A stretch of 64,000 bases of DNA from NCBI GenBank assembly GCA_041740355.1, contig JBGSMD010000046.1, positions 102,546 to 166,545 of the forward strand, read 5' to 3'. The stretch's first letter is position 1. Each line of letters starts with the position of its first letter. Source of the DNA: Bdellovibrionota bacterium (GTDB lineage Bacteria > Bdellovibrionota_C > UBA2361 > CALJRW01). A program made the translations under genes and the position numbers. The notes below the pieces were generated by a model that was given only the letters and a program-made list of their open reading frames with translations, did no database searches and was not told the origin of the DNA. Shown piece by piece: positions 8,956 to 18,881 of the stretch.

Positions 8956-10953
8956 GTGTCGTTCTCATTAACAGAAAACCTTCCAGTTCTTACCAATGCT
9001 CTTCAGTATAAAGACGCCTTGCCCGCAGCACTACAGCGAGATTTAAATCTCGCCTGTTTTGCAATCGTCTCAATTTTATTTGATGTAGATTTAAAAGCTA
9101 ATCCAGATGAAGCTATTCGTGTTGTTAAGCAGCTAGATTTTAGTAAAGCAAAATTACCAACAATCACCGATCATACATCTCTCGAAATCGTACTTAGTTC
9201 CCTAACAAAGCTTCGCGTAAATCAAGGAACATTTTTGCCCGCTAGTGAAATCATTGCAGAGTTAGTTAATTGTTCTATAGTTCAACGCAAGTTAGATAAG
9301 ATCGAAATACTAGGCGAAAGTTATGGGGTTCTTGAATATTATGGCAGTCAGTTTCCGCTGTTAAATAGAAGTCTGATCATTGATACTCCACTTGGTCGAA
9401 TTAAAAATGTGCTGGAGATTAATTCTAGGTTTAATAAGGCGATTGTAGAAATTATTGAGAGTAGTCCAAATATTAAAGGAAAAGATCGCTTGTGTGTTAT
9501 TGTTGGAGGTCGACCTGTATTATCTGTTGGGACAGTGATTCCTAATGAATTTAAATATATCACCTTTAACTCAGCAGGAATTACAGAAGGGATCTATCAA
9601 TTGGGAGGAGAGGCTTATCTTTTTCAATCAAATAAAACATTAGATCTAGATTTAGAAGGTGATTTTGTTAAAGCTGAGTTTGTAAAAAACACCAGTAGAC
9701 CAACCGGAATTATTGCCACCTCAAAATTTATCTATTTAGTGAATCACGGAGAGTTGCATGACAAAATCTCCATTCAGCATTACTCTGATTTTCAACTTAA
9801 TGTCGCTTTAGTGGAAAGTGAAAAATCACGGCAGGTTGTATTTTGGGGCGTCGTAAAAGCAAAAGAATGGGAGATTCCTTTTTTGAATTACGATCTTAGT
9901 CGTCCTAATTTGAAAGATTTACCACGGGAACCATTAGAAGAAGGTATTCCCAAGGAAGAGAGCGTAGTAATGACGCTGAGTTCAGAACCTGTTTTCTATC
10001 GAGGACAACTATATTTTCAGGCTGAGATAGCAGATAGAGGTACTGCTTTCTGTATTGTCTCACTGGATTCAAATGGAACACCTAGTGTTAATTCAATCTT
10101 TTCTGTAAACAGTTGTGCCGTCGAATCATTTGAGCCGATGGATGATTTTAGTAGATTAGGAAATGCATTGGTTCGAGCTGCAGGAGAAACTTTTTGTTTG
10201 CTCAATGGTAATTTTTACCATCAGTCAAAAGATCTACAGTTTTTAAATGACTTACCTTGTCAGGTGTTGGGCGACTCAAAAGAAGTATTTTCCAAACTAT
10301 TGTTTACCGAGACTGGTTGGAAAATTATTATTGATTCTGAAAATTCCTTTAATCTAAATTCAGTTATTTTTCCTTCAGCTACTGAATCCCCGATTGGCAT
10401 CCATGTTAACTCTAATAATGAGTTGACCTGCTTGACGCAGCCTACTTTGGGAGACGCACTAGTATTATATTGTTCTAATCATCCAATCGGTTTGCTGGAA
10501 GTTGATGATTTTCAAAGCCTGCTTGGTGTTCATTATTATGATAACAAGCACATTTGCTGTTTGTTTAAAGCTAAAGATGCTTATGTCAGTCTGACCTTTG
10601 AGGAGATTGGAGATGATTTATTTCCAAGGAGTTCATTAACCTTAACGGATGCGCAGATAACACCAATGGGATTGATAGGTAACTTGGAATCGAAGGACCC
10701 AATAATGATTATTAATGATCAGACCCTTTCTGGATATCAGTATCAAAGTTACAATACGGTAAGACTGATATCCGGTGGTCGGTTGCACTGTATTCAAACA
10801 GATCGAGGAGTTGTTATCATGACCGATGATCAGCAAGAGAATGAGATTTATCATGATTATCAAATTACTAGGGACCTACAAGCCAATTTAATAATTGCAA
10901 AAAGTGATCCAACCGTTCAAATTAGTTTTCGATTTAATCAGATTCAAAATTAA
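8956..10953 (+). CDS. Hypothetical protein (helical N-terminus, beta-rich remainder)
   Basis: 665-aa uninterrupted ORF with GTG start; no family motif recognised. Confidence 0.7.
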   Translation: MSFSLTENLPVLTNALQYKDALPAALQRDLNLACFAIVSILFDVDLKANPDEAIRVVKQLDFSKAKLPTITDHTSLEIVLSSLTKLRVNQGTFLPASEIIAELVNCSIVQRKLDKIEILGESYGVLEYYGSQFPLLNRSLIIDTPLGRIKNVLEINSRFNKAIVEIIESSPNIKGKDRLCVIVGGRPVLSVGTVIPNEFKYITFNSAGITEGIYQLGGEAYLFQSNKTLDLDLEGDFVKAEFVKNTSRPTGIIATSKFIYLVNHGELHDKISIQHYSDFQLNVALVESEKSRQVVFWGVVKAKEWEIPFLNYDLSRPNLKDLPREPLEEGIPKEESVVMTLSSEPVFYRGQLYFQAEIADRGTAFCIVSLDSNGTPSVNSIFSVNSCAVESFEPMDDFSRLGNALVRAAGETFCLLNGNFYHQSKDLQFLNDLPCQVLGDSKEVFSKLLFTETGWKIIIDSENSFNLNSVIFPSATESPIGIHVNSNNELTCLTQPTLGDALVLYCSNHPIGLLEVDDFQSLLGVHYYDNKHICCLFKAKDAYVSLTFEEIGDDLFPRSSLTLTDAQITPMGLIGNLESKDPIMIINDQTLSGYQYQSYNTVRLISGGRLHCIQTDRGVVIMTDDQQENEIYHDYQITRDLQANLIIAKSDPTVQISFRFNQIQN

Positions 10954-11256
10954 AAAAATTCTCAATATTGTTTTATAATTTACCTCATTAGCAAAAATTT
11001 TATTTTTAGCAGGCAAAAAACTGAGTAACTTAGTTTTTTTATAGTTATATCTATAGTTTAGGTGTTTTATGAAAGTTTAATTGTTGTAATTAATTATAAA
11101 ATTCTTTCTAATCCATTGTGTAAGAAATTTACCTCCTCTATAAGGTAGCATTCAAAAGGCTGAGAGTTTTTAACTTAGTCTTAAAGATAAACTCAGATCT
11201 ACTCTTTTCAGAAGTTAGATCTTGAGCTTACTATAGTTCTTATCATAAGCCTTTGC

Positions 11257-11610
11257 TTGTTAATAAAACTCAGTTTGCATTTAATGCCTTCTATGTGTGG
11301 TTTGTTTCTACGGAAACTTTTTCTGGTACTTCTAGTCTTCTCTGGCTTTGTTCAGGTAGTCAGCGATATTCACAATTCATGTGATAGCTCAATCAATAAA
11401 ACTTTAGAAATTAAAAAGTTAGAATCAAGAGACGATCTTGATGGTTTTCAATCATTGGACTTGCTGAAGTATCTAGCACGTGGCTCCAATTTTGAATTTG
11501 AAATTCAGCAAGTTTTAATTACTACTCTTACAGAACAGCAATATCATCCAATCTTTTCTCAAGAAATAAAGTTTACTTACTCTGGTCGAGCCCCTCCGGT
11601 AGTTGCTTAA
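11257..11610 (+). CDS. Putative ribosome-arrest leader peptide (N-terminal hydrophobic segment, C-terminal RAPP)
   Basis: RKLFLVLLVFSGFVQVVS near the N-terminus; ends YSGRAPPVVA*, with RAPP codons at 11587-11598. True start may be ATG 11284 or 11293. Confidence 0.6.
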   Translation: MLIKLSLHLMPSMCGLFLRKLFLVLLVFSGFVQVVSDIHNSCDSSINKTLEIKKLESRDDLDGFQSLDLLKYLARGSNFEFEIQQVLITTLTEQQYHPIFSQEIKFTYSGRAPPVVA

Positions 11611-11706
11611 TCTCTCATCGAAAAGACTACTTACTTACAAACGGCAGTAGTTTTTAGTTTGACCCAATCGTTCCACAATAAGCAACTTTAACAAACATTC
11701 TGCTAT

Positions 11707-13242
11707 ATGCATTTCCCAAATTTGACCAAGTGTTGCTCACGCGACATGGTGAAAGATCTGAATTCAGGTTTTCTTGTATTTTTAATAACTCTACCATTAT
11801 GTATGGCCATTGCTGTGGCTAGTGGTTGCCCACCAATCTCTGGGATTATCACTTCGATTCTTGGAGGCTTGCTTACAGGCTTAATTGGCGGAGCAAAGTT
11901 ATCCATCAAAGGTGCTCCCGCTGGTTTAATTGTAATTGTTTTAGCAGCCGTTACTGAGCTAGGTGTTAATGGAGATCCACTATCTGGATATCGAGCGGCA
12001 TTAGCAGTGGGTGTAATTGCTGGATTCTTCCAGATTTTACTAGGATACTTTAAGCTTGGAAAGTTTATTGATTATATTCCAGCTGCAGTTGTCCATGGAA
12101 TGATTTCTGCTATTGGACTGATAGTGATGGCCAAACAGATTTATTTCTTGTTGGGGATGAAGGCTGTTGGTAAGTCACCAGTAGAGCTACTCAGTCATCT
12201 TTTTCAAAGTTTACATTTAGCAAATCCCTTGATTGCCATGATTGGACTCGTTAGTTTGGTAATCATGGTTTGTTCCCTACATCCAAAACTTAAAAGATAT
12301 TTCAAATTGCCTGGGGCATTAGTTGTCCTGTTATTTGCAATCGGAGTAAGTTTTGTTTTTCAACTCGGAACTAGTACCTCCTACCAATTCATGGGTACTA
12401 ATTACAAACTAGATGATTCATTTTTAATCCATCTTCCAAATTCACTAATTCAAGGATTAGTTATTCCTGATTGGAGCACTTTAGGAACTTTAACAGCTTG
12501 GAAGTTTATTTTTCTATTTGCTGTCATTGGTTGTATCGAGTCTTTGCTAACAGTTAAAGCTATTAATCAGACTCAAGGTCCAGACGAGCAAGCTAACTTA
12601 AATAAAGATTTGATCTCGATTGGAGTGGTAAATAGTCTCGCTGGAATGATTGGGGGAATTCCGATGATCTCGGAGATCGGTCGTAGTAAAGCAAATATTG
12701 ATTTTGGTGCCACTAGTGCACGGAGTAACCTAATACACGGAGCATTGTTAGTTGTAGCAGTTGTATTTTTTGCAAGCCTTTTAAATCATGTTCCGATCGC
12801 GGCACTAGCAGCAATTTTAATCTTTATTGGATACCGACTTTTCTCGATTACGGAATGGAAGCATTCTTGGCAACAAGGTAAGGCGATATTCGCGGTGTTC
12901 TTTGTAACATTTGCCGTGACAGTTGCTGTTGATTTATTGGCCGGTGTGCTTATAGGTTTTATACTTTATTTAATTTGTGAAAGTTTTAAATGTCATTCTT
13001 TAAAAAGAGTTTTTTCTCCCAAATTTATAATTGAAGTTGAATCTGAGCAGGCAAGGATATCATTTACAGAGGGTTTGATTTTCACCAACTTTCCAAAGGT
13101 AAAAAAAGTAACGGAAAATGCTCTTACTCTTCATCAAACAGTATTAATTGACTGCCAGCAATGTTCGTTTATTGACGACGAATTTATGCAGGAACTTAAT
13201 AATTATGTTGCCGCCACTACTAGAGTGCAAAAATTAAGTTAA
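11707..13242 (+). CDS. SulP/SLC26-family anion transporter, probably bicarbonate
   Basis: DLNSGFLVFLITLPLCMAIAVASG, SIKGAPAGL, IESLLT, GGIPMISEIGRSKANI; short STAS-like C-terminus; adjacent to dabAB. Confidence 0.9.
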   Translation: MHFPNLTKCCSRDMVKDLNSGFLVFLITLPLCMAIAVASGCPPISGIITSILGGLLTGLIGGAKLSIKGAPAGLIVIVLAAVTELGVNGDPLSGYRAALAVGVIAGFFQILLGYFKLGKFIDYIPAAVVHGMISAIGLIVMAKQIYFLLGMKAVGKSPVELLSHLFQSLHLANPLIAMIGLVSLVIMVCSLHPKLKRYFKLPGALVVLLFAIGVSFVFQLGTSTSYQFMGTNYKLDDSFLIHLPNSLIQGLVIPDWSTLGTLTAWKFIFLFAVIGCIESLLTVKAINQTQGPDEQANLNKDLISIGVVNSLAGMIGGIPMISEIGRSKANIDFGATSARSNLIHGALLVVAVVFFASLLNHVPIAALAAILIFIGYRLFSITEWKHSWQQGKAIFAVFFVTFAVTVAVDLLAGVLIGFILYLICESFKCHSLKRVFSPKFIIEVESEQARISFTEGLIFTNFPKVKKVTENALTLHQTVLIDCQQCSFIDDEFMQELNNYVAATTRVQKLS

Positions 13243-13324: not shown

Positions 13325-16255
13325 ATGTTAATGCCAATTAACGACGAAATAAAAGTTATTGATTCTGATTCAATTCACTTGATTTTGGAAGAGTTAGCGG
13401 AATTACTTCCGAGTCAAGGACCGATTGATGTCTTTATTCATCATAATACTTTACATGGCCTAGAACATTTAAGTTTTTTTGAAGCAATAGAAACTGGCGC
13501 AAAGATTTTTGATGCTAGGTCGTATCTTGAGGAGAATCAATATCTCGAATTTTATCATGAAAATCGAATTCAATCAGTAGATTTAGATTACATTTTAGAG
13601 AAATTAGAGATTGACTCAAAAAAATTTCCAATCATAAAACGAATCTTACTTAATGTTCCTTTTGCTAAAACCTTTCAGCAAATTAAATGGTTATTAAGGG
13701 AAAGTTTTTTAGAATTACCAGAGGATTCAGAAACATTAGCGGCGGCAGTCAGCTGGATTCAATCTAGCAAGTTGCAGGAGGAAATAAAATTCTTAGAAAA
13801 GATTAATCGTCAATCTGCAACAGGTTTAAGGTCCTTGTTACAGGCTACGATTAGTGAAGGCCAGCGACATGAAATCATTAAAGAAGCGCTTTGGTCTCGA
13901 TGTTTACTTGCCGTTGTAGCTGAGAATATTCTTCCTGACCAAAATGTGGTTGAAAAAAATTCATTAATTATTGAAAAGGTTAATCCCTTTCTAATTAGAT
14001 TTTGTGAGGAGTACTTAGATCTGGGACAAGCAACAGTTGCTATGCCGAATAGAGCCACCGGACTGCTAAACTCTTTTTACAACTTAGTTAAGAGCTCTGA
14101 GATTTATTTACCTGATTGGCTTAGTAGCGTCAGCTGCAGTATTGAGAAATACCAATCACAAAAGCCTGAGGATATTTTATTAGAGATTATCACAAAAAAA
14201 GGTTTAAATTCAGTTGAAGCTAAAGAATTAATTTTCAGTGAAGTCTTAGCACTAAAAGGATGGGCTGGTTTTATTAGTTCAGCGGAACAGAATCCACATT
14301 ACTTGCACCACCTAGCAGGTGAAATAAAACCTAGCTTGATGGAGTTTGTTACACTAAGAATAATATTAGCAGATCTAGCGGAAGTGTTCTGTAGAAAAGA
14401 GTTATCCTTACAGCGCGAAATAGTGGATCGATCAACATTAAATAAATTCGATCACCTTTATCAGCTAGCATATCATTTATATTTAGTAGTGGTTGATGCC
14501 AGAGAAGTTAAAAAATCATTAACAGATTCTTTATATTTAGATCAGATTCTCGCCCAGCTTAATCTAGTTCCCCAATTAAAAAGGCAGAAAATTTGGCATT
14601 TGGCATACGAAGAAAATATTTACCGACGTGCTTTACAAGCGATTCAGTCTTGTGAGCCAGGTGATTCTTCTTCGCCTGAAATTATTGCTCAAATGGTTTT
14701 TTGTTTAGATGATCGGGAAGAGTCAATTAGAAGACATATTGAGAAGCAAAGCTCTAGTATTCAGACATTTGGAACGGCGGGTTTTTTTGGGGTTGATGCA
14801 ATTTATCAGTCAATTAGTGGTGAGCAAGCGCCTTTTTGTCCGATTGTTATTAAGCCAACTCACATAATTCGTCAGAAACCAAAAGAGAGCTCTAATCAGC
14901 GACTGGTTAATCTGCAAAAAAGACAACAAGTAAATCTCCATTTTAATAATTACTTAAGTCGTTTTTCGGGATCTATTTTTCATGGTTGGTTAATGACAAT
15001 CATTGGAATTTTCTCACTTTTCCCAATGCTCTTTAGTATTCTTTTTCCAAGACTGCGTAAGCCTTTTAGTAAGTTCTTTGATTTAGATGGAATGCTAACT
15101 ACTGAATTATCAGATTTGGAAATGGTAATTCCTGTTACTTCCGAGGATCCTTCCGAAATTGCAGGGTATACTGAATTAGAGATGGCTGATCGAGTAGCTA
15201 ATCTTTTGCAAACAATTGGCTTAACAAAAGAGTTTGGTAAATTAATCATTTTTTATGGACATGGTTCTTCTAGTCGTAATAATCCACTTAAGTCGGCATA
15301 TGACTGTGGAGCATGCGGCGGCCGGCCAGGGCGAATGAATGCACGGGCGATTGCCATGATGGTTAATCGGGTTGGCGTGCGAGAACTTTTAAAAAATTAT
15401 CATTCGATCGTGTTGCCGGAAGATACCTTTTGTATTGGTGCTTATCATAATACGTGTAACGATCAGGTACAGTATTACGATCTAGATTTATTGCCTGAGT
15501 CACACATAGTTTTTTTCGCTGGAATAAAAGAGTTAATGAATAAGGCCTGTAAAAGTAATTCTTTGGAGCGATGCCGTCGTTTTGGTCAAGTATCGGTGCA
15601 AACTCCGCTGGCAGCATATCGTGAAGTAAACTCAAGATCACAAACCTTAGCAGAACCTAGACCAGAATACGGGCATGCCGGGAATGCTCTATGTTTTGTT
15701 GGAAAAAGATCGGAGACTAAAAATCTATTTTTTGATCGACGAGCTTTTTTAGTTTCTTATGATTTTCAGGAAGATCCCAAGGCTCAGATATTAACAAACA
15801 TTTTAAAAGCGATTGTTCCTGTTTGTGGAGGAATAAATTTAGAATATTTTTTCTCAGCGCTAGATAATGAAGTTTATGGGGCAGGCTCTAAACTCCCTCA
15901 TAATATTGTTTCTATGTTGGGACTAATGAATGGAACTTGTAGTGATTTAAGAACTGGATTGCCACAGCAAATGATTGAAATCCACGAGCCAGTAAGATTA
16001 TTAATGGTTGTAAGTTGCGAACTTTCACAATTACAGGAGGCAATCCTACAAGATCCTACTGTTACTAGGATGATACATGGGCAATGGATAAGATTAATTT
16101 GCTGGGATCAATCACAGAAACTATTTTTTGATTATGATAGCGACGGGCTTTTTAAAGTAAAATCAGTCGAGCAGATAGCTCTGCCAGTAACAGAGAACTA
16201 TTTAACTAAGATTATTAAGCGCTCTGATAATTTAGACTTTCTTCGAATTAGATAA
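13325..16255 (+). CDS. dabA: DabA/MpsB (DUF2309), beta-carbonic-anhydrase-like subunit of an inorganic carbon pump
   Basis: FIHHNTLH; Zn-ligand motifs FCLDDREES, GHGSSS and DCGACGG; RPEYGHAGN, RRAFLVSYD, INLEYFFS, GSKLPHN, SDLRTGLP, HEPVRL. Confidence 0.93.
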   Translation: MLMPINDEIKVIDSDSIHLILEELAELLPSQGPIDVFIHHNTLHGLEHLSFFEAIETGAKIFDARSYLEENQYLEFYHENRIQSVDLDYILEKLEIDSKKFPIIKRILLNVPFAKTFQQIKWLLRESFLELPEDSETLAAAVSWIQSSKLQEEIKFLEKINRQSATGLRSLLQATISEGQRHEIIKEALWSRCLLAVVAENILPDQNVVEKNSLIIEKVNPFLIRFCEEYLDLGQATVAMPNRATGLLNSFYNLVKSSEIYLPDWLSSVSCSIEKYQSQKPEDILLEIITKKGLNSVEAKELIFSEVLALKGWAGFISSAEQNPHYLHHLAGEIKPSLMEFVTLRIILADLAEVFCRKELSLQREIVDRSTLNKFDHLYQLAYHLYLVVVDAREVKKSLTDSLYLDQILAQLNLVPQLKRQKIWHLAYEENIYRRALQAIQSCEPGDSSSPEIIAQMVFCLDDREESIRRHIEKQSSSIQTFGTAGFFGVDAIYQSISGEQAPFCPIVIKPTHIIRQKPKESSNQRLVNLQKRQQVNLHFNNYLSRFSGSIFHGWLMTIIGIFSLFPMLFSILFPRLRKPFSKFFDLDGMLTTELSDLEMVIPVTSEDPSEIAGYTELEMADRVANLLQTIGLTKEFGKLIIFYGHGSSSRNNPLKSAYDCGACGGRPGRMNARAIAMMVNRVGVRELLKNYHSIVLPEDTFCIGAYHNTCNDQVQYYDLDLLPESHIVFFAGIKELMNKACKSNSLERCRRFGQVSVQTPLAAYREVNSRSQTLAEPRPEYGHAGNALCFVGKRSETKNLFFDRRAFLVSYDFQEDPKAQILTNILKAIVPVCGGINLEYFFSALDNEVYGAGSKLPHNIVSMLGLMNGTCSDLRTGLPQQMIEIHEPVRLLMVVSCELSQLQEAILQDPTVTRMIHGQWIRLICWDQSQKLFFDYDSDGLFKVKSVEQIALPVTENYLTKIIKRSDNLDFLRIR

Positions 16256-16261
16256 TAACAA

Positions 16262-17587
16262 ATGATTAAGTTACTCTCCCAACTAGCAGCTCAAATAATT
16301 TTCATTCTACCTGTAATATCTTTAATAATAATTATTGTAGATCGCCTAGTTCGGCGCAAGGTAAATGAAAAACTAGTCGTTAGCACAATTCTTTACTCAC
16401 AGGCAATGTCTTTTATTGCCTTAAGCTTTATTTGGTTTTATTTTTTAATTGATGGAAGCTCTCCAATAAATTTTTTCAAAGTTGAATTATTAAACTTTGG
16501 AGAGCAATCAATTACTATTAGGTTTTTAATTGATCACTTGTCGTTGCCATTCATCAGCATCAATGTTCTTTTGGGTGCGATTGTTGGAATTTTTGCCTCA
16601 CGATATTTGCATCGAGACTCTGGTTATTTTCGCTTCTTTGTTTTGTATCATTTCTTTCTATTTGGAATGAACTTAATTGTATTGGCAGGAAATTTAACGG
16701 GGGTTTTTATCGGTTGGGAAATTGTAGGATTAACTTCAGCCTTGCTAATTGCCTTCTTTGCCTTTCGTAAACAAACGGTAACAAATTCTCTGCGAGCATT
16801 CTGGGCTTATCGCGTAACTGATACTGGACTGCTGTTAGCTTCCTTAATTGTTTTGAACCTTGGGGCATTAAGTTTTTCTGAACTAAAACTTATTCAACAG
16901 CCAATGATGATTAATTTAATTTTAATCCTTTGTTTGGTTTCAGCGATGGGTAAATCCGCGCAATTCCCTTTTGGTCATTGGTTACCTAAGGCGATGGAAG
17001 GACCTACACCTTCAAGTGCAATTTTCTATGGTGGGTTATCAGTTCATGCTGGAGTTTATTTAATTTTAAGAATTACAGATAGCATTGGACAGCCATTATG
17101 GTTCTCTGTTTTGTTAGTTTTAGTGGGATTAACCACGGTTCTCTATGGTTCGATTTTAGCGAAAATTCAGAGTGATGCCAAAAGCTCGCTGGCTTTTTCA
17201 GCTATGACTCAAGTCGGGATTATCTTTATTGAGCTTGGATTCGGTTGGACGATGATTGTCATTGTCCACTTTGTTGGGCACGCACTTCTGCGAACGTATC
17301 AATTGTTAAATGCCGCATCGTTACTCCACGATCATCAAGCATTTCAACATTCGATTGGTCAATATCAGCCAAAGAAAAACTCTCCTGGAAATACTATTTG
17401 GACAAAGATCTATCCTTATGTTTTCTGGGAAAATTACTCTAGCTTCTCTGACAAATGGAGTGTCTTGAATTTATTAGAAAAGGCTTCTAGTGCACTCAGA
17501 TTTTTTGATTACAAGTGTCACGATATATTGTTTCAATTGTTTGAGAAGACTTATCACTATTTTCTAAGATTTAAAATTAACCGCTAG
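16262..17587 (+). CDS. dabB: DabB/MpsA, NuoL/MrpA-like antiporter subunit
   Basis: SRYLHRDSG, GWEIVG, GKSAQFPFGHWLPKAMEGPTPSSA, HFVGHALLRTYQLL; directly follows dabA. Confidence 0.85.
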   Translation: MIKLLSQLAAQIIFILPVISLIIIIVDRLVRRKVNEKLVVSTILYSQAMSFIALSFIWFYFLIDGSSPINFFKVELLNFGEQSITIRFLIDHLSLPFISINVLLGAIVGIFASRYLHRDSGYFRFFVLYHFFLFGMNLIVLAGNLTGVFIGWEIVGLTSALLIAFFAFRKQTVTNSLRAFWAYRVTDTGLLLASLIVLNLGALSFSELKLIQQPMMINLILILCLVSAMGKSAQFPFGHWLPKAMEGPTPSSAIFYGGLSVHAGVYLILRITDSIGQPLWFSVLLVLVGLTTVLYGSILAKIQSDAKSSLAFSAMTQVGIIFIELGFGWTMIVIVHFVGHALLRTYQLLNAASLLHDHQAFQHSIGQYQPKKNSPGNTIWTKIYPYVFWENYSSFSDKWSVLNLLEKASSALRFFDYKCHDILFQLFEKTYHYFLRFKINR

Positions 17588-17588
17588 C

Positions 17589-18881
17589 ATGAAAACCAAG
17601 AATTTATATTTTATAGCAAGTGTTCTCTTCTTAGGGTTATTTCTTTTACTAATTACCGGATCCAGTACTCGACTTGCTAGCTATCTAGATTCTTCCGTTT
17701 TGCAAGTTTCGACATTGTTCTGTGGGGTGATCTTTAATTTAATGATGACACTTGTTTATTCTGCTTTCGGCCGACGGGTCTTTAAATTTTCATTTTCTGC
17801 TCTTTGGTTTTATTTACAAGTTATAATTAATTTTAGCTTACTAACTAATAGTATGCCGATATTTTTTATTTTAATTGCCTTAGCTTTGGTCGTCCATATT
17901 CGTGTTAGTAAACTTGACGTATTTCAAACAATAAAACATAGCCATCACTTTTTAGTATTTAGTGGTTTCTCTACAATTGCCCTAGTCTTGCTAGCAATCT
18001 TTGCCGGTAATGTCTTTTTTCTTAATGGCATTTATACAATTAGTCAGCTACAGGCCCAAACAGCCGAACTTAATCAATTCACTGTTTTATTAGGTGTTAT
18101 TATTCTAGCATTAATGGTGGGAATCTTTCCTTTCCACTTTTGGGTTAAGCCGATTTTTTTAGCACCGACACGATATGGATTAGCAGCAATCATTCGTTTA
18201 AATATAGGTTTTGTTTTTTGGTGTAAGTTTGGATTCCTAATGAATGCTGCTTTCCAACAATATCCCAAACTTATCTTGCTGATGCTAACTTCAAACTTAG
18301 TATACTCTGCTCTAATACTATTTGGAGAAAGAAAGCTGAGCGGAATTGCGGCCTCACTCTATCAATGGCATGTGCCATTGTTTATTTTAAATGGTGTACT
18401 GGTACAACATGGGGCTGCTATTCATTCGGTGATGGATTTTTTTAATACGTCCATTTGTATCTCAAGCTTAGTGATAATAATTGCCATGCTCCGCGATCGA
18501 ATTGGTCCCGAAAACTTAGATTCAGCTACAGGCCTAGCTATTTCCTTTCCGATATTTGGGCTTTCCTTCTTGTTTTGTGTCTTATCTTTGATCGGCTTCC
18601 CCGGAACTTTAGGGTTTATGAGTATCGAAATTTTATTACACAATCTAAGTCAAGATTATTGGCCAGTTGCTGGTTGCTTTGTACTGGCCTTAGCTTTAAA
18701 TGGTTATTCGTGTTTTAGAATATTTGGAGACTCCTTTTATGGGAATCCGCTACAAATTTATAATAAAATTTTTCAACCAAAACCAAGAGAAAAAATTGCC
18801 TTACTGATCTTGATATTAATTGTATTGGTTAATGGACTTGGACCAGACTTACTGGTTAGAATCTATAATTATGTTATTTAA
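17589..18881 (+). CDS. Second antiporter-like subunit (NuoM/MrpD-like)
   Basis: Multi-TM; GIFPFHFWV and LSLIGFPGTLGFMSIEILL; starts 1 bp after the dabB stop. Confidence 0.75.
   Translation: MKTKNLYFIASVLFLGLFLLLITGSSTRLASYLDSSVLQVSTLFCGVIFNLMMTLVYSAFGRRVFKFSFSALWFYLQVIINFSLLTNSMPIFFILIALALVVHIRVSKLDVFQTIKHSHHFLVFSGFSTIALVLLAIFAGNVFFLNGIYTISQLQAQTAELNQFTVLLGVIILALMVGIFPFHFWVKPIFLAPTRYGLAAIIRLNIGFVFWCKFGFLMNAAFQQYPKLILLMLTSNLVYSALILFGERKLSGIAASLYQWHVPLFILNGVLVQHGAAIHSVMDFFNTSICISSLVIIIAMLRDRIGPENLDSATGLAISFPIFGLSFLFCVLSLIGFPGTLGFMSIEILLHNLSQDYWPVAGCFVLALALNGYSCFRIFGDSFYGNPLQIYNKIFQPKPREKIALLILILIVLVNGLGPDLLVRIYNYVI

Follow-up and report, generated by a model that had tools for sequence, protein, structure and literature searches.

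A candidate RAPP-class arrest leader upstream of sulP-dabA-dabB in an uncultured Bdellovibrionota bacterium

A 64,000-nucleotide (nt) stretch of DNA from an uncultured order of Bdellovibrionota (GenBank assembly GCA_041740355.1, contig JBGSMD010000046.1, positions 102,546 to 166,545; hereafter the window) carries a short open reading frame (ORF) that ends close to the residues Arg-Ala-Pro-Pro (RAPP) and directly precedes a sulP-dabA-dabB operon. This ORF is probably a RAPP-class arrest leader that acts in cis on sulP-dabAB, an interpretation to which we assign a probability of roughly 70–75%. The ORF is coding, its terminal motif is conserved and is depleted from the proteome, the arrangement recurs elsewhere, and the geometry of the locus fits. 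An arrest leader at this location had been proposed in a first-pass annotation of the same DNA. The proposal finds strong comparative support in retention of the motif through synonymous codon changes, near-neutral drift of the stretch predicted to occupy the exit tunnel, depletion of the motif and its recurrence at the end of unrelated leaders in multiple phyla.

The leader ORF and its C-terminal motif

The features of this locus described below lie on the + strand, and their coordinates are those of the window. The ORF can be read from three start codons (TTG at 11257, 117 amino acids (aa); ATG at 11284, 108 aa; ATG at 11293, 105 aa), of which the last, yielding a 105-aa leader at 11293–11610, is common to the orthologue in a genome of the same genus (G001; equivalent MCGLF). 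The leader ends in YSGRAPPVVA. Its R, A, P and P codons occupy 11587–11589, 11590–11592, 11593–11595 and 11596–11598, respectively, and are followed by three codons and a stop at 11608–11610, which leaves a 96-nt spacer before the ATG of sulP at 11707 on the same strand. The coordinates and Pfam matches agree with the first-pass annotation, which had described a leader with a hydrophobic N-terminus and RAPP three codons before its stop, 96 nt ahead of sulP-dabA-dabB. With the stall register adopted from earlier work (PMC10951233; PMC12992588, section 7; these and the other papers are cited for the portions of their text consulted), a ribosome stalled on the RAPP codons (11587–11598) is predicted to hold 11593–11595 in its P site and 11596–11598 in its A site.

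Judged by its pattern of substitution, the leader ORF is a real coding gene. The same ORF is found in G001 (61% identity), where it is directly upstream of sulP with a 54-nt spacer, and one further homologue (68% identical) was recovered in a search of 5.77 billion proteins. Comparison with G001 reveals 13 synonymous and 8 non-synonymous codon differences in codons 1–59, corresponding to a ratio of non-synonymous to synonymous divergence (pN/pS) of 0.19; within this portion, codons 25–59 comprise 23 identical, 9 synonymous and 3 non-synonymous codons. Codons 60–97 exhibit a ratio of 0.80, with 31 non-synonymous and 2 synonymous differences and only 5 identical codons, and the leader overall yields 0.47. 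In codons 98–105 there are four synonymous changes while G-R-A-P-P is intact, and thus the motif appears to be kept at the amino-acid level. The three copies end in GRAPPVVA, GRAPPATA and ERGPPVA. Absence of RAPP from homologous leaders, which the first-pass annotation had named as an observation that would speak against its proposal, was not found: R[AG]PP stands two to three residues from the stop in all three. It is scarcely credible that the ORF arose by chance in an AT-rich spacer and is no gene. Its lack of a Pfam or NCBIfam family and its very narrow distribution would suit such an origin, but the ratio of 0.19 across 59 codons with 13 synonymous differences, and a frame that is open through 105 codons in three diverged copies (61–68% identity), argue strongly against it.

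The divergence is partitioned along the protein. When the three copies are aligned, invariant columns number 43 of 59 over residues 1–59 but 4 of 39 over residues 60–98, and the boundary between the conserved and free portions lies ~42 residues before the P-site proline, which is roughly one exit-tunnel length. This pattern is the one expected of a leader that senses with a part already clear of the ribosome and requires hardly more than the RAPP core for arrest. The most hydrophobic 17-residue window of the leader, residues 4–20 (11302–11352; Kyte-Doolittle mean 2.18), with R7 and K8 noted as preceding, fits a signal sequence or membrane anchor. The conserved segment comprising residues 25–59 (11365–11469) is putatively exported and would be outside the ribosome at the predicted arrest; it includes an acidic patch, LESRDDLDG (residues 43–51, 11419–11445), whose centre lies 54 residues before the P-site proline. 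The fast-evolving segment (residues 60–97, 11470–11583) would occupy the exit tunnel.

No match to the leader was found in Pfam (at E up to 0.01 and up to 1) or in NCBIfam, and the profile of the DUF2946/CruR family (PF11162) does not match it. The protein has no CXXC motif, its only Cys residues being C2 and C30. Among named language-model clusters, those closest to the leader are SecM_small (0.93) and DUF2946 domain-containing (0.92), which can serve only as a lead. Three sets of DNA contigs from one study carry no variant letters in the leader and so provide no extra natural alleles.

RAPP and RGPP are reported to be the most context-independent arrest cores, to be unrelieved by EF-P and to be depleted from proteomes (PMC12992588). 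The same rarity is evident in the 3.27-Mb genome (36% G+C) from which the window derives, where the leader is the only one among 10,826 ORFs of at least 40 aa to carry R[AG]PP within six residues of its end. ORFs that reach 150 aa or more encode 878,140 residues in total, in which a single R[AG]PP is present where 7.2 would be expected (Poisson 0.006); the motif is thus depleted in this proteome. The comparison motifs A[AG]PP and K[AG]PP occur 5 and 7 times in the same residues, with 12.9 and 12.1 expected, respectively.

Recurrence of R[AG]PP leaders before sulP-dabA

A scan with the DabA profile, using one genome per species, yielded at least 77 loci. Among the 77 listed, sulP begins directly upstream of dabA in 23, seven of which belong to the order of the window. 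In 7 of the 16 outside this order, the ORF adjoining sulP has a hydrophobic N-terminus and ends in R[AG]PP plus two to four residues. These seven loci derive from Actinokineospora, Saccharothrix, Actinosynnema and metagenome-assembled genomes (MAGs) of Myxococcales, Bryobacterales, Spirochaetaceae and ‘Deltaproteobacteria’. An eighth, from Streptosporangium saharense (L089, ~2236–2877), reads VARGPPVRRGR, with RGPP internal and no stop after it, and may represent a read-through or decayed variant of the leader; the frame continues for ~40 codons, overlaps the start of sulP and resembles its actinobacterial relatives. In addition, a Planctomycetota locus lacking sulP carries an ORF ending in RAPPNC 340 nt before dabA.

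When ORFs of 30–300 aa at the 77 listed loci were examined for R[AG]PP in the last 12 residues, 10 were found on the operon strand and 2 on the opposite strand, compared with 3 and 6 for the control motif A[AG]PP. Two of the 10 operon-strand ORFs are probably spurious, being situated in GC-rich DNA beyond dabA. A separate scan with the SulP profile yielded at least 80 loci, 33 with dabA downstream and 47 without. Among these listed loci, leaders precede sulP in 7 of the 33 with dabA versus none of the 47 without it (Fisher 0.0013, with kin among the loci not being independent). In the same scan, A[AG]PP was encountered once on the same strand, and the opposite strand carried R[AG]PP once and A[AG]PP not at all. 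One of the seven leader loci is on a contig already present in the DabA scan.

Together, the two scans establish at least 13 distinct leader-bearing loci outside the genus of the window, which span Actinomycetota, Myxococcota, Acidobacteriota, Planctomycetota, Spirochaetota and Alphaproteobacteria; the window adds Bdellovibrionota. The first-pass annotation had suggested that ORFs upstream of sulP and dabA homologues be inspected in this way, and R[AG]PP endings do recur at these further loci, in at least six phyla beyond that of the window. A protein search that used seven of the leaders as queries returned 19 homologues (3 of which are the query loci's own proteins), and RGPP is kept in all 19, in 18 of them within two to four residues of the end. 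These other leaders likewise have no Pfam or NCBIfam family. All 16 leaders compared contain a 17-residue window with a mean hydropathy of at least 1.74.

On a FastTree phylogeny of 109 SulP proteins, the presence of a leader requires at least eight changes of state. Horizontal spread of the cassette is indicated by one clade of 13 rows, 9 of them with leaders, in which Actinomycetota, Myxococcota, Spirochaetota, Planctomycetota and Alphaproteobacteria are intermingled. The SulP of the window is on a long, unplaced branch. SulP proteins of the leader-rich clade (L071, L091, L098, L128, L133 and L145) are 61–67% identical to one another and have in common a His/Arg-rich C-terminal tail (AHPH..RRR), which the SulP of the window lacks. 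Within this clade, an ORF before sulP at L131 (2031–2657) combines a segment resembling a signal sequence with a strongly acidic patch but has no R[AG]PP, and may be a leader that has lost the motif.

DAB complexes are recently recognised, energy-coupled CO2-hydrating pumps that are widespread in bacteria. In the window, sulP (11707–13242) encodes a SulP-family anion transporter (PF00916, 6.7e-57) and is followed by dabA (13325–16255; PF10070, 4.4e-200), dabB (16262–17587; Proton_antipo_M, 1.8e-38, plus Proton_antipo_N) and dabB2 (17589–18881), a gene for a second antiporter-like membrane subunit (Proton_antipo_M, 5e-07; weak NuoM/MrpD-like matches). The arrangement is that of a DAB pump, with DabA (PF10070) adjoining a NuoL/MrpA-like DabB (PF00361), and the order sulP-dabA-dabB is kept in relatives. 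The SulP protein scores below the curated cut-offs of the DauA, sulP and BicA models (134 bits for BicA, with a cut-off of 880), and is a family member to which these models assign no substrate. The divergent NuoM/MrpD-like gene after dabB has a counterpart in many DabA loci of other phyla, where a second dabB-like match is likewise placed, which suggests a pump with three subunits. Upstream of the leader, an ORF of 665 aa on the same strand (8956–10953) has no Pfam match and also adjoins the leader in G001. A promoter-like box (TTGTGT, 17 nt, TATAAG; 11117–11145), picked out by eye and kept upstream of the G001 leader, might drive transcription of the leader; a consensus promoter scan did not recover it.

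Pairing in the mRNA and alternative explanations

Two helices can form around the spacer between the leader and sulP. The sequence AGTTGCTTA at 11601–11609, beneath the leading edge of the predicted stalled ribosome, is the exact reverse complement of TAAGCAACT at 11679–11687, whose end is 19 nt before the ATG of sulP. The resulting long-range helix encloses a hairpin at 11621–11655 with arms at 11621–11631 and 11646–11655 (one G-U pair). Both had been described in the first-pass annotation and both are present in the minimum-free-energy fold (−30.6 kcal/mol, z = −2.5), which is equalled by 4 of 200 shuffles. The 3' arm resides in a 19-nt box (11677–11695) that is common to the two orthologous spacers and is their best-conserved part, and where the two genomes differ by C/T in this box, their respective complementary arms differ by G/A. 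If the P site holds the first Pro codon, a footprint from −14 to +16 extends over 11579–11609 and covers the whole 5' arm. When 347 windows spanning leader and spacer are ranked by pairing with the box, the top 23 are exactly those that include 11601–11609, and 6 of 300 shuffled footprints pair equally well.

Several other possibilities for the spacer were examined. A terminator scan of 10800–12000 returned no terminator-like site, and the inner hairpin is therefore unsupported as an intrinsic terminator. Rfam matches in the same interval are at chance level (a snoRNA at 25.8 bits with a gathering threshold of 48, and a viral pseudoknot at E = 4). A direct role for the CCUCC of the Pro codons in blocking a ribosome-binding site (RBS) was rejected, as the window has no Shine-Dalgarno (SD) site with which it could pair and the duplex between the stall window and the RBS is ordinary (24 of 55 controls as strong). 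The genome is essentially free of SD sites, and upstream regions are A-rich instead.

We propose that a Sec-targeted leader of ~105 residues would be the first cistron of a sulP-dabA-dabB-dabB2 transcript. Its RAPP motif would stall its own ribosome, with peptidyl-RAP-tRNA on 11593–11595 and Pro-tRNA on 11596–11598, and the duration of the stall would set the level of operon expression. This duration would in turn be set by the fate of residues 1–59, the conserved N-terminal part, which by then would have left the ribosome and entered export, such that a pull on the nascent chain would release the arrest. A ribosome held on 11579–11609 would dissolve the 11601–11609/11679–11687 helix, which would otherwise sequester the conserved box that immediately precedes the sulP initiation region, in an organism whose translation starts do not depend on SD pairing. 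The stall, a transcript shared by leader and operon, the sign of the response and the signal are inferences in this model. Given an arrest leader, opening of the helix next to the sulP initiation region is the output step that we favour, tentatively and at somewhat less than even odds.

A number of observations weigh against the proposed arrest leader or against the role given to its helix. The leader family is, as far as the searches reach, tiny: a homologue is present in only 1 of 40 related genomes (G001 provides the sole better-than-chance match), and a profile search of 1.84 billion representatives returned its own cluster plus one spurious match, a 1,194-aa tandem-repeat protein (P0004) that was rejected because only 31 residues are matched. 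Neither a leader nor RGPP is found at 8 of the 16 listed sulP-dabA loci outside the order. Alignment of the own-genus leaders to seven of the others by hhalign gives a probability of 1%, and thus what recurs is an architecture and not a demonstrable family. Moreover, 14 of 18 sulP loci in the order of the window are preceded by a different conserved element of ~100 nt with no leader ORF.

The remaining points concern the RNA. The z-scores of the fold are modest, at −2.5 and, when a longer piece is folded, −1.6. The start of sulP (−14 to +3) is predicted to be mostly unpaired both in the free state (0.77) and in the stalled state (0.66), and the helix thus does not appear to mask the start codon. 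An SD 4-mer core occurs between −20 and −4 in 16% of 1,524 long ORFs versus 12% at random positions, and sulP itself has no SD site. The orthologous locus in G001 has no inner hairpin, its partner arm for the box is just 5' of the R codon and only partly under the footprint, and its stall window pairs poorly (−3.0 kcal/mol; 177 of 305 windows and 124 of 300 shuffles as strong). Across 15 leaders, pairing between the stall window and the RBS is in the top ~12% of controls in only 4, and in no more than 2–3 does pairing with the last 45 nt upstream of sulP exceed that of 95% of shuffles. The first-pass annotation had held that a stalled ribosome would cover the 5' arm and thereby open the downstream region. 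The former part stands, with the footprint at 11579–11609, but the latter is weakly supported, given that the sulP start is predicted to be open with or without the stalled ribosome and that the details of the pairing differ in the orthologue.

A different output of the same arrest leader is a serious rival, which we hold to be somewhat less likely than opening of the helix. As with CruR, a stalled ribosome would keep Rho off the C-rich spacer and transcription would continue into sulP-dabAB; upon release of the arrest the ribosome would terminate, Rho would load and the transcript would end in the spacer, with the helix being incidental or secondary. CruR has the same geometry, with RAPP three residues from its end and a long spacer, and there RAPP prevents Rho-dependent termination (PMC9426467). 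The spacer (11611–11706) is C-rich and G-poor, with a C/G ratio of 2.09 versus 0.86 for the window, and by analogy with CruR is a candidate Rho loading region. C outnumbers G in 14 of 15 leader spacers, the genome carries a rho gene, and a sulP start that is open in both predicted states speaks against control by masking. However, a rut site or termination point is not identifiable by sequence, the G001 spacer is only 54 nt long, and the 9-bp helix and conserved box would be left without a role, even though the best partner of the box lies under the stalled ribosome. A negative arrest, in which sulP is translated mainly by re-initiating ribosomes that have completed the leader and therefore requires release, is improbable. 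The helix would bring the leader stop (11608–11610) beside 11679, ~20–28 nt from the sulP ATG, the genome largely and sulP wholly lack SD sites, and a release that reports good export or an energised membrane would suit a pump driven by proton-motive force (PMC13144422). Nevertheless, gaps of 54–217 nt between leader and sulP are long for re-initiation, and known RAPP leaders among those compared act positively.

The leader could instead be a small exported or membrane-anchored accessory protein of SulP or DAB, in which RAPP is tolerated or serves the mature protein and no regulatory stall occurs. Purifying selection on residues 25–59 is clear and the gene always travels with transporter genes, as such a function would predict. 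We nonetheless consider this explanation decidedly unlikely. The motif is the shared feature of leaders that otherwise cannot be aligned, stands two to four residues from the stop in 18 of 19 homologues plus 16 of 16 leaders, and is depleted elsewhere in the proteome. RAPP is also reported to arrest ribosomes independently of context and despite EF-P (PMC12992588), and the 38 residues that precede it drift almost neutrally, unlike a folded domain. The accessory and regulatory roles are, however, not mutually exclusive.

In the order of the window, DabA is encoded in 36 of 91 genomes, mostly as sulP-dabA-dabB. The ~100-nt element that precedes sulP at 14 loci of this order (L052, L054, L055 and L058–L068; for example, L060:1354–1476) consists of two helices with invariant arms and variable loops, situated between a TTGACTA box and a TAGGAG RBS. 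It contains no covarying pairs among 19, and no Rfam match at E up to 0.1 was found in 18 upstream regions of relatives. This element is a candidate for a new cis-regulatory RNA or operator of the same operon. In another family of the order, a 160-aa ORF (L051, genome G086; 186–668) with two hydrophobic segments ends in GRSPPRISE 242 nt before sulP, and is possibly a weak variant of the leader. A change from Ala to Ser is reported to be partly permissive for arrest in ApdA and ApdP (PMC12992588).

Comparison with known arrest leaders and implications

Motifs of the RAPP/RGPP type are reported to be over-represented close to the C-terminal ends of small proteins, secretory or membrane-bound, whose ORFs precede diverse genes, including those for TonB receptors, YcnI, PCu(A)C, PepSY, DsbA/thioredoxin and sigma factors as well as sec genes, and seven such upstream ORFs (uORFs) are described in Streptomyces lividans (PMC12992588). 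The window leader resembles these uORFs in being a small secretory or membrane protein with a C-terminal RAPP/RGPP upstream of non-localisation genes. It exhibits the C-terminal motif, the hydrophobic N-terminus, the co-directional upstream position and the conservation of the motif amid variable neighbours that characterise the class, to which it thus appears to belong, with a new target and with no Pfam or NCBIfam family. Unlike the genes that follow the Sec/YidC monitoring substrates SecM, MifM, VemP, ApdA, ApdP and ApcA, those downstream of the window leader encode no Sec or YidC component but SulP, DabA and DabB. In the literature searched, no paper connects DabA, DAB2 or inorganic carbon to ribosome stalling or to arrest peptides, and the claim of the first-pass annotation that arrest control of DAB/SulP had not been described holds to that extent. 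Yet the paper on the S. lividans uORFs reports RAPP/RGPP uORFs before diverse genes, and although its main text has no occurrence of SulP, DabA or bicarbonate, a supplementary table gives a SulP family inorganic anion transporter as the downstream gene at least 15 times; DabA, DUF2309 and inorganic carbon are unmentioned in the available portions of the supplementary files (PMC12992588).

A close parallel in geometry is with CruR (Bp2923, DUF2946) of Bordetella pertussis, which is upstream of the TonB-dependent transporter gene bfrG. In CruR, RAPP is three residues from the end, CXXC is 45 residues upstream at a conserved spacing, a 162-bp spacer follows, and RAPP is required to prevent Rho-dependent termination ahead of the next gene (PMC9426467). 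The two leaders are alike in having a conserved element ~45 residues before RAPP (CXXC in CruR, an acidic stretch at 42–54 residues here) and a long spacer followed by a transporter gene that is unrelated to Sec components. They differ in that the window leader has neither a DUF2946 match nor CXXC, in that the targets serve anion or inorganic-carbon uptake here and copper in CruR, and in that an output through Rho has been shown for CruR alone. CutF of Rhodobacter capsulatus, upstream of cutO, senses copper (bioRxiv 10.1101/2022.11.11.516240, 10.1101/2025.02.05.636593) and, compared by description only, is similar in that a stalled nascent exported protein links a periplasmic signal to downstream translation. 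ApdA of Actinomycetota and ApdP of Alphaproteobacteria are RAPP arrest peptides upstream of secDF (PMC10951233). The window leader has no sequence similarity to either, its downstream genes are not protein-localisation machinery, and its release by Sec-dependent pulling is only assumed.

SecM of Escherichia coli is an exported leader with RAGP upstream of secA, and its arrest alters an mRNA helix before the next gene. It is the model behind the hairpin idea, in which a C-terminal arrest alters a helix before the next gene. However, the window leader carries RAPP without the long upstream arrest sequence of SecM and has no match to SecM in Pfam, and its helix covers neither an SD site nor the start codon.

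The position of the acidic stretch raises a further and more doubtful possibility concerning the signal. The most acidic 9-residue window is centred 42–54 residues from the P-site proline in 12 of 16 leaders (median 49.5), although these 16 represent only a few independent lineages; in the remaining four it is at 61, 70, 86 and 87 residues. In force experiments with arrest peptides, a run of five aspartates in a nascent chain is reported to feel a membrane-potential-dependent pull through SecYEG at a chain length of ~50 (bioRxiv 10.1101/310698), and the hydration of CO2 by DAB2 is described as requiring a membrane potential or proton-motive force (PMC13144422). The distance of the acidic patch thus equals both the spacing of CXXC and RAPP in CruR (45) and this pull length of ~50 residues, on which a sensor of voltage or pH could be based. 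The leaders may, speculatively and with position and composition as the only grounds, sense the voltage across the membrane, or the pH of the periplasm, during their own translation and on behalf of a pump that is driven by voltage; sensor and pump would then form a cassette that spread horizontally through at least five phyla. The stall duration would then report membrane potential or protonation of the acidic patch and tune the synthesis of DabAB.

The principle of such control is not new, in that RAPP/RGPP uORFs before diverse genes were reported in 2025 (PMC12992588). The recurrence of R[AG]PP leaders before sulP-dabA nevertheless points to an undescribed switch for carbon-uptake genes, and the arrest-leader reading would be more general than is visible from the window alone. 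If true, it would constitute the first cis-regulatory mechanism for sulP-dabAB operons, present in at least seven phyla, and the culturable carriers Actinokineospora, Saccharothrix and Actinosynnema would make control of pump synthesis directly testable. The arrest-peptide field would gain a target class, inorganic-carbon or anion uptake, and, in addition to the CXXC with which CruR binds metal, a candidate sensor of another kind in the acidic patch, whose distance from the P site matches the tunnel exit.

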